This document shows positions 33,148 to 38,048 of a stretch of DNA of 64,000 bases, one piece after another (within the stretch, counting starts at the first letter, position 1; the number at the start of each line of letters is the position of its first letter). The position numbers and the translations under genes were made by a program. The notes beneath the pieces were generated by a model. The model saw only the letters and a program-made list of their open reading frames with translations, made no database searches and was not told where the DNA came from. Origin of the DNA: Acidobacteriota bacterium. GTDB taxonomy: Bacteria > Acidobacteriota > UBA6911 > RPQK01 > JAJDTT01. The DNA is taken from the NCBI GenBank assembly GCA_965209055.1, contig OZ242374.1:3584001-3648000 (forward strand), in the 5' to 3' direction.

Positions 33148-34671
33148 ATGAACATTCTTCTGTACAACCCCGACAACCAGGTGACGAAGAACTACATGCC
33201 GCATTTGTGGATGTTTGTTCTGCAGGCGGTGACGCCGCCGGGGCACCGGGTGTTTCTGATCGACGGAAACGCACAGCCCATGACCCGGGCGGACATCATC
33301 CAGTTCGTCAAGGACAATGACATCCAGTTGGCCGGCATCGGCGCCATGACCCGGATGGCCGCCCGCGCCTACCAGATGGCCGACGCCATCCGTTCGGCCG
33401 GGGCCAAAGTGGTGATGGGAGGACCCCATGTAACGGAGGTTCCCGACGAGCCCATCGGCCGGAGTGGCGAACCCCGGCATGCCGATGCCGTGGCGCTGGG
33501 TGAAGCGGATGATATCTGGCCCAAGATCGTGGCCGATGCGGAAGCGGGTCAGCTCAAGGAGGTCTACGAACCTGTCGACGAGACGGGCAAGGAAGTCAAG
33601 CCCTCTCTGGACAACTACCCCAGAATTCCGTGGGAGACGCTGGACCTGCGCCAGTTTGACCTCATGGCCAAGATCCCCAACTGGGGCCGCTACCTGCTGA
33701 GGAAAGCGGGAAACACCTGGAAGGGCCTCTACATCGTCCCCGTCGAGTCCGGCAGGGGTTGTCCTTACGGATGCGATTTCTGCACCGTCACCGGGTTCTT
33801 CGGCGATTCCATTCGCTTCCGAAGCGATCAGAGCGTCGTTGACGAGATGCTGCGGCTCAAGGCCCGGGCCCGAAAGGAGAACAGCAGAGTCGGCGTTTTC
33901 TTCATCGACGACAACTTCGCCCTCAATAAACGTCGGACCAAATCGCTGCTTCGGGAAATCATTGCCCAGGATGCCGTGATTCCCTGGGTGGCTCAGATCA
34001 GCGTGAACCTGCTGAAAGACGAAGAGCTGGTGGACCTGATCCAGGAGAGCGGCGGCCGGTGGATCTTCATGGGTCTCGAGTCCATCGACACTGAGAACCT
34101 CAAGGACGTGAACAAGGGCTTCAACAAGCCTGCGCAATACGCCGAGGTTCTGGATCGCCTCGCCAAGCGCGGCATCTACTCCATCACCTCCTTCATCTTC
34201 GGAATGGACGGCGATCGCCCGGGGGTTGCCCGGAAGACTCTGGATGTCATCGACAGTTGGCCTCCGGGGCTGCCCGTATTCGGTCTGCTGACGCCCTATC
34301 CTGCGACTCCGTTGTACGATCGCCTGCTGGCGCAGGATCGGCTGACCCGTCCCAAGCACTGGCTGGATTTCAGGCCATTCCGCATGGCCTTCACTCCCAA
34401 CAACATCAGCATCAAGGCGGCCGAAGCCGAGGTTCACGAAGCCTGGACCCGGTCCTACTCACCCCAGACCACGGCCATGGCGCTGAAGAAGATCGAGGGG
34501 CGTCCCTTCCACGAACGAACTTTGATGTTCTTTACGCGGCTGGCGTTCCGGGGCATCTACTTCCCCCAGATGAAGAAGCGGCATTGGATCCTGTTGCTCT
34601 GGCAGAACCGGTCCAGCTTTATGCGCATTCTGTCCGAGGGCATTCAAGAACTTCGCCGTTCGAGAGCCTGA
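33148..34671 (+). CDS. B12-binding-domain radical SAM protein
   Basis: N-terminal cobalamin-type domain (VVMGGPHVT, GEAD), RGCPYGCDFC, FFIDDNF, GLES, TPYPATPLY. Confidence 0.92.
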   Translation: MNILLYNPDNQVTKNYMPHLWMFVLQAVTPPGHRVFLIDGNAQPMTRADIIQFVKDNDIQLAGIGAMTRMAARAYQMADAIRSAGAKVVMGGPHVTEVPDEPIGRSGEPRHADAVALGEADDIWPKIVADAEAGQLKEVYEPVDETGKEVKPSLDNYPRIPWETLDLRQFDLMAKIPNWGRYLLRKAGNTWKGLYIVPVESGRGCPYGCDFCTVTGFFGDSIRFRSDQSVVDEMLRLKARARKENSRVGVFFIDDNFALNKRRTKSLLREIIAQDAVIPWVAQISVNLLKDEELVDLIQESGGRWIFMGLESIDTENLKDVNKGFNKPAQYAEVLDRLAKRGIYSITSFIFGMDGDRPGVARKTLDVIDSWPPGLPVFGLLTPYPATPLYDRLLAQDRLTRPKHWLDFRPFRMAFTPNNISIKAAEAEVHEAWTRSYSPQTTAMALKKIEGRPFHERTLMFFTRLAFRGIYFPQMKKRHWILLLWQNRSSFMRILSEGIQELRRSRA

Positions 34672-34878: not shown

Positions 34879-34999
34879 CGGAGGATAAGGGTACAATAGC
34901 GCCGTCCGAGTGAGAGTTGGCTGATCGACCGCTGTGGCGCCCCTCCAGAAGATCCGGTCGCCGGTACGGGGTAATCATTTTAACTATCGCCTGGGAGTC

Positions 35000-37534
35000 A
35001 TGAGCAACATGAAAACGGGGAATTCCGTCTCCGCACAATCCAATGTCACTATTGTTTCCGTAGATCTGGGCCGCTGGACCAAAACCGAGATTCCGTCCGC
35101 CCTGGTGCAGGCCGTCAGAGCGGAAGTGGACGCCTTGGGCCTCCAGGCGGGACTCCGCGGGTCCTGGGTACGGGGCTTCGGCGGGGACCTTCACATCCAT
35201 CTCTCCAGCCTGAACGGAGATTTCGCCGGCGGGAATGCGGTTGATGTCTCGGCCCGGATCGGACTGCGAGGTGGACTGAAGGGCCTGGAACACGCGTTGG
35301 CGGCCGGTCTGGCCGGACCCGAAGCGACGGAGGTCTTCTCTCTGGCCCCGGACGCCCAGCGGGAGGCTCTGGGCATCCGACTCCTGAATTTTCCCTATAC
35401 CGAGCGGGGTGCCGAACCCATCTTCTTGGCCAAGGCTCTGGACGGCGCATGGGGCTTCTTCAACCGGTCTCTCTTCAACCTCTTCTTCAACCCTGACAAG
35501 GGCTCCGGACGGAGGATCGAAGCCAACGACTATCTCGGAGTGGTCGAGTCCATCGAAGATCTGGCTGCGGGGCGGGACCGGATCCGGACCTACGAGTTCG
35601 GACCCGGTCAACTGAACGAGCTGGTGGCTCTCATCGCCGACGCCGAGCAGTGGCGTCTGAGCCAGGTCTATGCGGTCCGGGGCCGGTTCGCGGAGGGCGC
35701 GCTGCGGGATGAGCCGGCCGCTGTGGTGGGAGGGAGCTTCAATCCCATCCTGATTGGACGTTCCCAGTCGGGGCTGCCTGCCATCGGTGAATTCACGCAG
35801 GCGGCCGGCGAGTTTCATTTCGGTCCGGGTGGACACGGCGGGGAGTACCGGGTCGGGCTGGTGCCGGTGGACTTTCCCGGAAGCCGGGCCCTCCGTTCCG
35901 GGGAGGGAGCGGCCCGGATCGTGGCCTACGCCTACCAGTCGTTCGATCGGGGCCGCATCCCTTCCGACACCGACGTCGTGGACGTTTTCGATCAGAATCG
36001 GCCCGAAACCCGCTGCCTGCAGAGAGACGCGGCCGACCTGATCCGGCACATGGCCGGGCAAGGCCAGTTCGAACCGTATCTGAATCCCCAGGCATCGGAA
36101 TCCAGGGCTGCGGATCTGGCCGCACGACTCTCGGGACGGCTCGAGGACATTCCCGATGAGGATCCACTGATCGCAGGCGCCAACCAGCGGGCGCGTTTCA
36201 CCATCTCCGACATCAAGGCCGACGGCGGAGGCAAAGTGGGCCACACGACGCCGCCGAACCATTTCCGGTTCGTCGCCAAGGCGAGCCTCCAGGAAGCGAC
36301 GGAGCTGGGTCTCATCTCCTCGACCTCCGAGGTCATCGAGGTGGGCGACGACGAACACCTGCTCATGACCCATTCCCGCGGCGCCGACGACAACGCGGTT
36401 CACCTTTTCGCCTATCGAACCTTCTTTCGCCAGGTCTGGGTTGCCGGCACCCTGGGCTACAAGTGGTACGGTCTGGGCCAGGATCTCGTGGGAGACGCCT
36501 CTGCCGGCCGGGCCACGGAGGAGTTGGCTCACCTGACCGACCGGTTTCTGGAGTTGTTGGCCGATCACCTGCCCGATGCCGAGCGGTCTCAACTGGGCGT
36601 TCTCGAGAAGGCGTACGGGGACTGGAAAGCGGGGTTGGTGGAGGCCGGCGAGCCCGAACCGGTCTTTTCCGGCAACGTCTCGGGGCAGGGGCCCGGTTTC
36701 GCGGAACTGCCCCTCAACCGGACGCAGCGGGTGGGTCTCCTTTCCATCGACAAGGCGGGACCGTCGGCCTTCAACCTCCCCGTCTGGTGGGGTCTGAACC
36801 ACGCACGGACCAGCGGATCGCTGCAACGGCATCTCGAGTCCATTGGTGGCTCCGGAGCCGTGCTGGAGGTCTGGGACGTGGAGCACCATCGCCGGATCTT
36901 CCTGGACCTGGAAACCGAGTCGGGGCATTGTCAGACGCTGCTGGGCGCCGTGGAGAAGTTCAACGTCAAGCGCGTCTGGAGCCGGAACGGGGCGTTCGAT
37001 CCGGCGCATCCGCACCAATGCCTGGACGAGGTCCTGCTGTCGGCCTCCACCGAGAAACTGGCCGTCATTTCGGGCGGCGAGTACCTGGGCAAGGACGACC
37101 CGGTGCTGCTGTCGGTGGAGCCGCTGGCGGAGGGGCTCAACCTCTTCATGCGGGATCACTTCTACATGACTCAGGGAGACGGGCGGGGGTCCCACTACAT
37201 GTTTCCGACGCCCCTTTCTTTCCGGGACGCCATCGCCACCATCTCCAGCCGGGGAGTCGCCGTCTCCGCCTGGATCCAATTGGATGAATCGGGTCGCATG
37301 ACCGAGTTCCGGGACATGTTCGCGGATCCCTCCTACGAGGCGGCTCGAGAACGCGCCTATCGGGTGAACAAGGCCATTTGGGACGCGCACGGCGGCAACT
37401 TCATTCCGGTGGGGGTCGGGGCCTCCAAGGTGGAGAGTTCGTATCCCTTGGCGAAGACTCTGGCCCGCATCACGCGGCCCGATTCGGAATTTGCATCCAG
37501 CCGGGGCCAGGACCTCGTCCTGGTTCGGTCCTGA
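35000..37534 (+). CDS. fbp: Tandem-duplicated class V fructose-1,6-bisphosphate aldolase/phosphatase (two FBPase_3-type domains)
   Basis: C-half: ISDIKADGGG..GH, GDD..LLMTH, YGLGQDL, FSGNVSGQGPG, DKAGPSAFNLP, YLGKDDP, RGSH. N-half: degenerate homolog with VDLGRW, GGDLHI, RSQSGLPAIGE, GQFEPY. Confidence 0.85.
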   Translation: MSNMKTGNSVSAQSNVTIVSVDLGRWTKTEIPSALVQAVRAEVDALGLQAGLRGSWVRGFGGDLHIHLSSLNGDFAGGNAVDVSARIGLRGGLKGLEHALAAGLAGPEATEVFSLAPDAQREALGIRLLNFPYTERGAEPIFLAKALDGAWGFFNRSLFNLFFNPDKGSGRRIEANDYLGVVESIEDLAAGRDRIRTYEFGPGQLNELVALIADAEQWRLSQVYAVRGRFAEGALRDEPAAVVGGSFNPILIGRSQSGLPAIGEFTQAAGEFHFGPGGHGGEYRVGLVPVDFPGSRALRSGEGAARIVAYAYQSFDRGRIPSDTDVVDVFDQNRPETRCLQRDAADLIRHMAGQGQFEPYLNPQASESRAADLAARLSGRLEDIPDEDPLIAGANQRARFTISDIKADGGGKVGHTTPPNHFRFVAKASLQEATELGLISSTSEVIEVGDDEHLLMTHSRGADDNAVHLFAYRTFFRQVWVAGTLGYKWYGLGQDLVGDASAGRATEELAHLTDRFLELLADHLPDAERSQLGVLEKAYGDWKAGLVEAGEPEPVFSGNVSGQGPGFAELPLNRTQRVGLLSIDKAGPSAFNLPVWWGLNHARTSGSLQRHLESIGGSGAVLEVWDVEHHRRIFLDLETESGHCQTLLGAVEKFNVKRVWSRNGAFDPAHPHQCLDEVLLSASTEKLAVISGGEYLGKDDPVLLSVEPLAEGLNLFMRDHFYMTQGDGRGSHYMFPTPLSFRDAIATISSRGVAVSAWIQLDESGRMTEFRDMFADPSYEAARERAYRVNKAIWDAHGGNFIPVGVGASKVESSYPLAKTLARITRPDSEFASSRGQDLVLVRS

Positions 37535-37730: not shown

Positions 37731-38048
37731 ATGTCTCCTGACTTCATCCGGGCGGGAGGCATTTCGGTGAATCTGGAGCAGTGTACGGCCCGGGCCGGAC
37801 GCCGCGTGCTCCGACTGACGCTCACCGAGTACAATCTTCTGGTCTGCCTGTTGCGAAATCCGGGACGGGTCCTGAGCCGCCGTCAGTTGCTGGATGCGGC
37901 ATGGGGAGAAAACTACCAGGGTGGCGAGCGGACCGTGGATACCCACATTGGACGGCTCCGGAAGAAGCTGGGCAAAGCGGGGCAACGGATCCAGACCCTG
38001 CGTGGAATGGGCTACAAGCTGGATGCGGTCCGGCGGCGATCGGTTTGA
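37731..38048 (+). CDS. Stand-alone OmpR/PhoB-type winged-helix DNA-binding domain protein
   Basis: LTLTEYNLL, GRVLSRRQLLDAAWG, RTVDTHIGRLRKKL, IQTLRGMGYKL. In-frame stop upstream at 37674 and no receiver domain. Confidence 0.8.
   Translation: MSPDFIRAGGISVNLEQCTARAGRRVLRLTLTEYNLLVCLLRNPGRVLSRRQLLDAAWGENYQGGERTVDTHIGRLRKKLGKAGQRIQTLRGMGYKLDAVRRRSV

Follow-up and report, generated by a model that had tools for sequence, protein, structure and literature searches.

The window analyzed here is a 64,000-nucleotide stretch of an Acidobacteriota bacterium genome (assembly GCA_965209055.1, contig OZ242374.1, positions 3,584,001 to 3,648,000), and coordinates below are those of the window. It contains a gene for a double-length member of the family of fructose-1,6-bisphosphate (FBP) aldolases/phosphatases (FBPA/P), in which a catalytically degenerate FBPA/P domain is followed by a catalytically intact one. 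The gene and all features described within it lie on the plus strand.

The open reading frame and its relatives

The gene occupies one uninterrupted frame from 34934 to 37534, corresponding to 866 amino acids counted from the first GTG. The start is likely ATG 35009, which gives an open reading frame (ORF) of 841 amino acids plus stop (35009 to 37534), or ATG 35000 (844 amino acids), which has GGGAG immediately on its 5' side. Close homologues are 841 amino acids long, and their first residues, MKTGN, correspond to ATG 35009. In two genomes of the same genus, a TAA interrupts the reading from the upstream-most GTG (34934) and the frame from MKTGN is open, which favors the downstream starts. 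A genome-level search with the FBPase_3 profile returned three matching pieces, all inside this single stop-free frame. In a different study (a run labeled sponge metagenome), an 18.6 kb contig independently spans the ORF with 58 substitutions and no insertions or deletions (indels) inside it. Together with 120 relatives of the same architecture, this contig indicates that the frame is not an assembly artefact, and it speaks against two separate genes, which the first-pass annotation had named as a refuting outcome.

A word-index search found 254 relatives, and the figures that follow refer to the best 120 of these. All of them are 805-875 amino acids long, share 59-96% identity with the protein, and have the same two-domain architecture; those that carry a name are called fructose 1,6-bisphosphatase (FBPase) or FBP aldolase/phosphatase. 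Among relatives of the C-half there is a gap in identity between the long-form family (at least 47%) and the canonical enzymes (at most 31%).

Both halves match FBPA/P profiles and folds

Against Pfam PF01950 (FBPase_3), the whole protein scored 236.5 bits (gathering score 25 bits), which makes it a family match. When the halves were searched separately, the N-half scored 53.2 bits (E 3.5e-14, profile positions 114-338) and the C-half 188.3 bits (E 3e-55, profile positions 2-103 plus 99-338). A canonical hidden Markov model (HMM) built from 24 single-domain FBPA/P enzymes recognized, in the long-form family, every one of the 121 N-halves, at 63-106 bits, and every one of the 121 C-halves, at 142-180 bits. 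The N-half of the window's protein scored 64 bits with this HMM, and in some long-form members the N-half match spans almost the entire canonical profile.

The full-length AlphaFold model had a pLDDT of 82.4 and a pTM of 0.82, and its low-confidence segments fall where the C-half has its lid, Schiff-base, and C-terminal loops, presumably the mobile loops of FBPA/P. Structural comparison of the C-half of this model with 1umg using VIA gave a Z score of 36.0, a root-mean-square deviation (rmsd) of 3.0 Å over 352 aligned residues, and 30% identity; by phmmer against the PDB, the C-repeat matched 3r1m with an E value of 7e-27. Modeled alone, the N-half had a pLDDT of 81.1 and a pTM of 0.83, and its top seven Foldseek matches were all seven solved FBPA/P entries (E 3e-21 to 1.5e-19). 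A VIA search of 48,161 representative chains aligned the N-half model to 1umg_A with a Z score of 31.0, an rmsd of 3.4 Å over 329 residues, and 22% identity, the next chain reaching a Z score of 8.4. The models thus predict that both halves are complete FBPA/P folds. The first-pass annotation had described about 845 amino acids made of two class V repeats and had expected two matches in a Pfam scan, and both statements are borne out by the profile scores and the folds of the two halves.

The first repeat has lost the catalytic residues

The N-repeat (35036 to 36145; residues 35-404 in 866-residue numbering) is a complete FBPase_3 domain that is catalytically degenerate. A short linker (36146 to 36193), lying between the aligned ranges 10-379 of the N model and 396-832 of the C model, connects it to the second repeat. 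Canonical residues are numbered here after the canonical domain of the protein P0194, one less than in ST0318 of Sulfurisphaera tokodaii. At the canonical GDD..H metal-ligand strand, the N-repeat carries its own motif DLHIH (35186 to 35200), of which D60, H62, and H64 (841-residue numbering) are invariant in 70 sequences. The canonical DP..T.G segment is replaced by FNPDKGSG (35486 to 35509), a motif that is likewise invariant and specific to the N-repeat. Across the 70 sequences, the invariant N-specific positions comprise DLHxH, GFFNR, and FNPDKGSG, plus R169, E171, N173, and others. The canonical RFDGPP is reduced to GEGAAR, in which only the glycine is invariant. The Schiff-base loop Y-x-G-K-D-D is absent, as the first-pass annotation had stated; its further claim that the metal ligands were lost held for the listed metal and phosphatase residues with the exception of the D53-equivalent aspartate, which is kept in 89% of 121 N-repeats.

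Two canonical motifs are retained in this otherwise degenerate domain. TERGAEP (35399 to 35419) contains E157-R158, equivalent to the canonical invariant E119-R120; this pair is kept in 121 of 121 N-repeats and lost from the C-repeats. RSQSGLPAIGE (35759 to 35791, where the first-pass annotation had placed it) corresponds to the canonical R.Q(S/H)G.PA.GE, which only the N-repeat retains and in which R, Q, P, G, and E are each present in 100% of 121 N-repeats.

The second repeat retains the catalytic residues

The C-repeat (36194 to 37504; residues 421-857) is a catalytically intact FBPase_3 domain, judged by its residues. KADGGGKVGH (36215 to 36244; K9, D11, and H18 equivalents) is present in 100% of 121 C-repeats, and is followed by VGDDEH (36341 to 36358; D52 and D53), GQDL (36476 to 36487; Q94 and D95), IDKAG (36746 to 36760; D131 and K132), the Schiff-base loop YLGKDDP (37082 to 37102; Y228, K231, D232, and D233), and RGSH (37184 to 37195; R265, S267, and H268). 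These motifs all stand where the first-pass annotation had located them. The equivalents of D11, H18, D52, D53, Q94, D95, D131, K132, D232, and D233, as well as the Y, G, K, D, D, and P of the Schiff-base loop, are found in 100% of 121 C-repeats. In this family, the residues named here serve as metal ligands, Schiff-base lysine, catalytic tyrosine, and phosphate binders. In the C-terminal loop, the motif SYPLAK (37439 to 37456) contains an invariant tyrosine, S811, Y812, P813, L814, and A815 all being invariant. This tyrosine may be the equivalent of Tyr347 of ST0318, a residue required for both activities according to a published study (PMC8740755); hmmalign sets it two columns off the canonical tyrosine.

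The same domain has lost what the N-repeat keeps. Both E-R and R-x-Q-(S/H)-G-x-P-A-x-G-E, which show no variation in the 24 canonical sequences, are lost from the C-repeat, which has LLSVEPLAEGL (37106 to 37138) at the position of the latter motif, with a five-residue deletion seen as a gap in the HMMER alignment. The canonical RFDGPP site reads SSRGVAV (37244 to 37264). A 54-amino-acid insert (36500 to 36661; residues 523-576) lies between GQDL and the lid-loop equivalent FSGNVSGQGPGFAE (36665 to 36706), which, like the Schiff-base loop, has a low pLDDT in the model. The insert is predicted to form short helices, with a mean column conservation of 0.66 and a ratio of nonsynonymous to synonymous substitution rates (dN/dS) of 0.067-0.131. 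The first-pass annotation had already noted the lost R.QSG.PA.GE motif, the long insert after GQDL, and the absence of RFDGPP from both repeats, and it was right on each.

Division of canonical residues and selection on both halves

A near-invariant set of 123 positions was defined in the 24 canonical sequences, and a position was counted as kept when the same residue occurred in at least 80% of 121 sequences. The C-repeat retains 65 of these positions and the N-repeat 29: both repeats keep 15, only the C-repeat 50, only the N-repeat 14, and neither 44. The C-only set includes K9, D11, H18, D52, Q94, D95, D131, K132, Y228, K231, D232, D233, R265, S267, and H268. The N-only set consists of E119, R120, P124, A130, P149, G154, I157, P183, R239, Q241, P245, G248, E249, and G287, and most of these residues occur in 100% of N-repeats. 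By this pattern, E-R and R-x-Q-S-G...G-E appear to be dispensable in the catalytic domain and indispensable in the catalytically dead one.

Over 121 proteins, the columns of the N-half had a mean conservation of 0.72 and those of the C-half one of 0.79. In eight pairs of close relatives, dN/dS ranged from 0.104 to 0.150 for the N-half and from 0.059 to 0.078 for the C-half. Both halves, the dead N-repeat included, are under purifying selection.

Taxonomic distribution

The long form was found in six of 201 sampled genomes of the phylum, namely all five of the genus and one other of the order; 20 further genomes of this sample have single-length genes. Species-representative genomes, searched with the pattern FNPDKGSG, contained 40 long-form loci, all in metagenome-assembled genomes. 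The loci lie in genomes labeled Acidobacteriota or Aminicenantes (27), Poribacteria (4), Gemmataceae (3), Latescibacterota (2), Nitrospinota (1), Anaerolineae (1), Dehalococcoidia (1), and unclassified (1). The gene or part of it is present in runs of 10 studies, several of these runs being labeled sponge metagenome, where near-identical DNA is found. Poribacteria, Latescibacterota, Nitrospinota, and Chloroflexota, which also carry the long form, are typical sponge-associated groups, a hint of exchange within this habitat. In one metatranscriptome run, three contigs match parts of the gene at 90-95%; they represent a relative's sequence and do not imply transcription.

A group of shorter proteins on long contigs (P0132, P0151, P0153, P0156, and P0159; 516-563 amino acids) was considered as an intermediate architecture and rejected: they begin inside the end of the N-repeat and are therefore truncated calls or fragments, not a shorter form. 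At one related locus (L041:4111-5493), the C-half contains four in-frame stop codons, which points to a frameshift, an error, or a pseudogene.

Distant tandem proteins and fusions

Searching 1.84 billion representative proteins with the N-half profile gave 140 matches at E <= 0.001, with 138 newly found sequences among them, of which 52 are at least 850 amino acids long. An N-type domain followed by a C-type domain occurs in 41 of the long proteins, one has the order N-C-N-C, and in eight both domains match the canonical HMM best. These distant tandem units sit in proteins of 850-6393 amino acids. In 49 of 49 distant two-domain proteins, the first domain keeps the set of residues that may act on a partner subunit (the partner set) and the second the catalytic set. 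In the 41 N-then-C proteins, domain 1 averages 1.8 catalytic residues out of 16 and 6.5 partner residues out of 9, and domain 2 averages 7.3 out of 16 and 0.5 out of 9. The corresponding values for the eight canonical-like tandems are 1.8 of 16 and 8.6 of 9 in domain 1 and 12.0 of 16 and 1.6 of 9 in domain 2. The catalytic counts for domain 2 are underestimates, caused by hmmalign gaps across large inserts. RFDGPP is retained in domain 2 of eight distant tandem proteins.

A FastTree phylogeny of 115 rows (39 of 154 rows, with more than 45% gaps, were left out) placed all 48 first domains in one clade with a support of 0.985, and the second domains fell among bacterial canonical enzymes. In a smaller tree, the N clade and the C clade each had a support of 1.0, with long stems and similar internal branching. 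The arrangement of a dead first and a live second domain reads as having a single ancient origin, and the trees are compatible both with a tandem duplication and with a fusion of two paralogues.

Triosephosphate isomerase (TIM) is fused to the tandem unit in seven representatives (P0239, P0241, P0245, P0265, P0289, P0294, and P0295), at the N-terminus in five and at the C-terminus in two. Pfam confirms the TIM domain in P0239, which is labeled Candidatus Omnitrophota, and in P0241 and P0294. This suggests a repeated fusion of two consecutive gluconeogenic steps.

Several other family members deserve mention. The tandem unit occurs twice (N-C-N-C) in P0221, a protein of 3495 amino acids, and long relatives such as P0227, P0229, P0248, and P0226 share conserved families of N- or C-terminal extensions of 250-450 amino acids with no Pfam match. 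The single-domain FBPase_3 proteins P0335, P0336, P0357, and P0358 have lost most catalytic residues and retain much of the E-R / R.Q.G.P.GE set, and are thus candidates for the dead partner, in unfused form, of a catalytic paralogue. P0305 and P0314, also single-domain, keep the metal ligands, lack the tyrosine and the Schiff-base lysine, and may be phosphatase-only forms. P0194 (638 amino acids) joins a canonical FBPA/P domain to a SorC-type sugar-binding regulator domain (PF04198).

Metabolic and genomic context

The window belongs to a closed genome of one contig (6.08 Mb, 98.4% complete) with a single FBPase_3 locus. Searches of this genome gave no match to PF00316, PF03320, or PF06874 (class I, GlpX/class II, and class III FBPase, respectively), PF01116 (class II aldolase), or PF00365 (phosphofructokinase, PFK), all of which matched in control genomes. 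Its only gene of the DeoC family encodes an LsrF-type thiolase (477 bits, cut-off 297). TIM and a PGI/PMI-type domain are present, and PF00342 gave no match in the genome. Five other long-form genomes, labeled Acidobacteriota (two), Poribacteria, Gemmataceae, and Latescibacterota, likewise contained no match to PF01116, PF03320, or PF00316 (0 of 5 each). The tandem protein therefore appears, from gene content, to be the organism's sole FBP aldolase and sole FBPase, carrying gluconeogenesis. The absence of a match to any alternative enzyme in these searches and the TIM fusions in relatives together support a working enzyme that leads from triose phosphate to fructose 6-phosphate (F6P).

PFK, for which the window's genome had no match, is present in four of the five other long-form genomes, one of the matches containing stops. 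These four genomes have no class II aldolase match that would account for the cleavage of PFK-made FBP.

The genes around the ORF encode a B12-binding radical SAM enzyme, a Trans_reg_C protein, a metallo-beta-lactamase-fold protein, a HAD protein, a menaquinone-synthesis protein, and others. Inspection of this neighborhood for a connection to sugar metabolism revealed none. The radical SAM gene (33148-34671, plus strand) lies directly upstream on the same strand, with no apparent link to the tandem gene, and just downstream (37731-38045, plus strand) a 105-amino-acid ORF encodes the Trans_reg_C DNA-binding domain alone, without a receiver domain.

Discussion

We conclude that the ORF encodes a real, conserved, and widespread two-domain derivative of FBPA/P, whose dead first domain is kept for a reason. 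The protein is a member of the PF01950 superfamily, yet falls short of several features of the canonical bifunctional enzyme. The explanation that we consider probable is a covalent pseudo-heterodimer with one composite active site, serving gluconeogenesis. Its parts differ in firmness: there is little doubt about the architecture and the residue pattern, whereas the mechanism in trans is the least certain, with the contact at the domain interface, the composite site, and the catalytic activities all inferred.

The proposed history begins with an ancient event that would have united two FBPase_3 domains, either a tandem duplication or the fusing of two paralogues. The second domain would have retained the Asp/His/Gln ligands, the Schiff-base lysine and tyrosine, RGSH, and the C-terminal tyrosine, all of which the first would have lost; the first would have retained E-R, which follows the lid loop, and R-x-Q-S-G-x-P-A-x-G-E, which follows the Schiff-base loop, exactly the motifs lost by the second. 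In ordinary FBPA/P oligomers, each active site would be completed or buttressed by these two motifs from the neighboring subunit. In the fused protein, only one of the two reciprocal sites would survive, made of catalytic residues of the C-domain and partner residues of the N-domain, the other having decayed on both sides. [quoted passage not shown] Had the two motifs acted within their own chain, the C-domain could not have lost them and the dead N-domain would have had no reason to keep them; the pattern is thus as expected for residues that act from a partner subunit.

A complex prediction with the two halves as separate chains is consistent with their pairing. The score was 0.59 (runs of 0.60, 0.59, and 0.47), compared with 0.00 for the best of three controls, and the runs had a contact agreement of at least 10% and a partner pLDDT of at least 52. 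In calibration, 58 of 80 solved complexes and two of 110 mismatched pairs attained the mark, although scores of 0.60 or less include just seven of the 80 solved complexes and both passing mismatches. A similar homo-oligomer has been solved, which means that the pass may be memory, and the output, which gives no interface or contacts, has no bearing on residues acting in trans; we therefore count the prediction as weak support for N-C pairing.

Several observations weigh against the composite-site explanation. Direct comparison of the two repeats gave no significant BLASTP match and chance words alone in blastn, and hhalign of the N and C profiles reached a probability of 23.5% only on a 19-column overlap at their boundary; the duplication is old and detectable only by way of the canonical enzymes and structure. 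Over the 123 near-invariant positions, retention in the N-repeat and in the C-repeat is independent (Fisher odds ratio 0.94, p = 1.0). The complementary motif loss proposed by the first-pass annotation is accordingly confined to particular motif clusters, where it stands in 121 of 121 relatives and in the 49 distant tandems, with no global anticorrelation. The 44 canonical invariants gone from both repeats, RFDGPP among them, mean that the active site cannot equal the canonical one, and NCBIfam's equivalog model NF041126 (FBP_aldo_phos) gives the whole protein 230 bits, below its cut-off of 520. The catalytic counts in the distant second domains are distorted by alignment gaps, as noted above. 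PF00274 (class I aldolase) gave no match in the window's genome or, equally, in the control, and a class I aldolase is thus possible. The protein phosphatase CinF, a family member described below, shows that activity is not proven by homology alone. Cross-subunit action of E-R and R.QSG.PA.GE in the canonical enzymes is an assumption, made by the first-pass annotation as well for substrate binding by the Gln-Ser of the latter motif, and the proposed reach of the N-domain residues into the C-domain site is the weakest link. The same annotation's suggestions of a regulatory N-repeat and of a shifted substrate or aldolase/phosphatase balance are likewise conjectural.

The alternative that survives best, which we judge unlikely, takes the N-domain to be a mere scaffold or regulatory module attached to a self-sufficient C-domain enzyme, its retained residues serving to stabilize the oligomer or to bind an effector in a vestigial pocket. 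The many non-canonical invariant polar residues of the N-domain exceed what the donation of a few partner residues would need, PFK in four of the five other long-form genomes would make regulation useful, and the duplicated eukaryotic PFK-1 and mammalian hexokinase I each gained a regulatory half. This account leaves unexplained, however, why the C-domain, under strong constraint, lost E119/R120 and R239/Q241/E249, on which all 24 canonical enzymes agree, and why the same residues are kept in the first domain of 49 distant tandem proteins.

Less probable still is a neofunctionalized protein that has given up F6P formation from triose phosphates and acts on another phosphorylated substrate, either a sugar bisphosphate such as sedoheptulose bisphosphate or, as with CinF, a protein. 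The score under the NCBIfam equivalog cut-off, the absence of RFDGPP and 43 other canonical invariants from both repeats, the position of the 54-amino-acid insert next to the lid loop, and the precedent of CinF for a change of function in this family (PMC8740755) all fit such a change. The metal ligands, the Schiff-base lysine and tyrosine, and RGSH are nevertheless invariant in 121 C-repeats, no other FBPase or class II aldolase match was obtained in the six genomes searched, and TIM fusions recur among the relatives.

A merger of two adjacent genes by assembly or sequencing error has a negligible probability, with nothing found in its favor (a related locus, L041, does have in-frame stops in its C-half), given that the same frame occurs in nine close relatives of identical length, in at least 120 database proteins of 805-875 amino acids, at 40 loci of other genomes that include closed chromosomes, and, free of indels, in the independent contig.

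Returning to the pseudo-heterodimer, the abundance of invariant residues specific to the N-domain would allow regulation as an additional function. It is conceivable, though doubtful, that a vestigial pocket of the N-domain (DLHxH, GFFNR, FNPDKGSG, and the Arg/Glu/Asn cluster) is an allosteric effector site that goes beyond the donation of partner residues. If so, mesophilic bacteria would possess a regulated form of an otherwise one-way, unregulated valve, in parallel to eukaryotic PFK-1; coexistence with PFK in some genomes would be explained, and the TIM fusions would be a further step toward a channeled machine from triose phosphate to F6P.

FBPA/P is discussed as a gluconeogenic enzyme of ancestral, heat-adapted character that belongs mostly to archaea and thermophiles. 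In the large genomes considered here, which come from uncultured bacteria, a double-length derivative is the sole recognizable FBP aldolase and FBPase, and records labeled as at least six other phyla carry it as well. It would be a clean natural example of how a homo-oligomeric enzyme can become a fused pair whose halves divide the labor, and its pattern of retained residues marks the canonical residues that probably act from the partner subunit. Because these proteins score under the equivalog threshold and bear the plain name fructose 1,6-bisphosphatase, reconstructed pathways of these lineages may lack the aldolase step or show an incomplete gluconeogenesis. The accessible portions of the literature searched, in which the slash-containing name of the enzyme is itself unsearchable, contain no mention of a duplicated or fused FBPA/P, and neither does the available text of a 2025 review of glycolytic enzyme phylogeny (PMC12525153); this agrees with the first-pass annotation, which knew of no description of the architecture.

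Comparison with known systems

The canonical FBPA/P enzymes are ST0318 (1umg, 3r1m) and the Thermoproteus neutrophilus enzyme (3t2b-3t2g). Canonical FBPA/P is a homo-oligomer, an octamer, of chains of about 360-400 amino acids with a single domain, unlike the 841-amino-acid, two-domain protein of the window. The tandem protein shares with the canonical enzymes the fold of both halves, the metal ligands, Schiff-base lysine and tyrosine, and RGSH of the C-half, and presumably the reaction and the gluconeogenic role. It differs from them in being a tandem twice as long with a dead first domain, in the displacement of R.QSG.PA.GE and E-R to that dead domain, in the lack of RFDGPP, and in the 54-amino-acid insert after GQDL.

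Eukaryotic PFK-1 and mammalian hexokinase I arose by tandem duplication and fusion of an enzyme of bacterial size, one half remaining catalytic and the other being repurposed. Their folds are unrelated to FBPA/P, and their second half serves the binding of regulatory ligands; in the tandem FBPA/P, by contrast, the dead half appears to retain residues on which the live half depends.

CinF (Cbu0513) is an FBPA/P homologue with an ST0318-like sequence that reportedly has no detectable FBPase activity and is a protein phosphatase (PMC8740755). It belongs to the same family as the tandem protein, but has a single domain, and shows that family membership leaves the activity unfixed.

Further parallels are the longer tandem FBPase_3 proteins of uncultured bacteria such as P0239, some of them fused to TIM. 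They differ in their length of 850-6393 amino acids, their large inserts, and their extra regions without a Pfam match. They have the same dead-first, live-second order and the same retained residues, and in the tree a single clade unites their first domains with the N-repeat of the window's protein.

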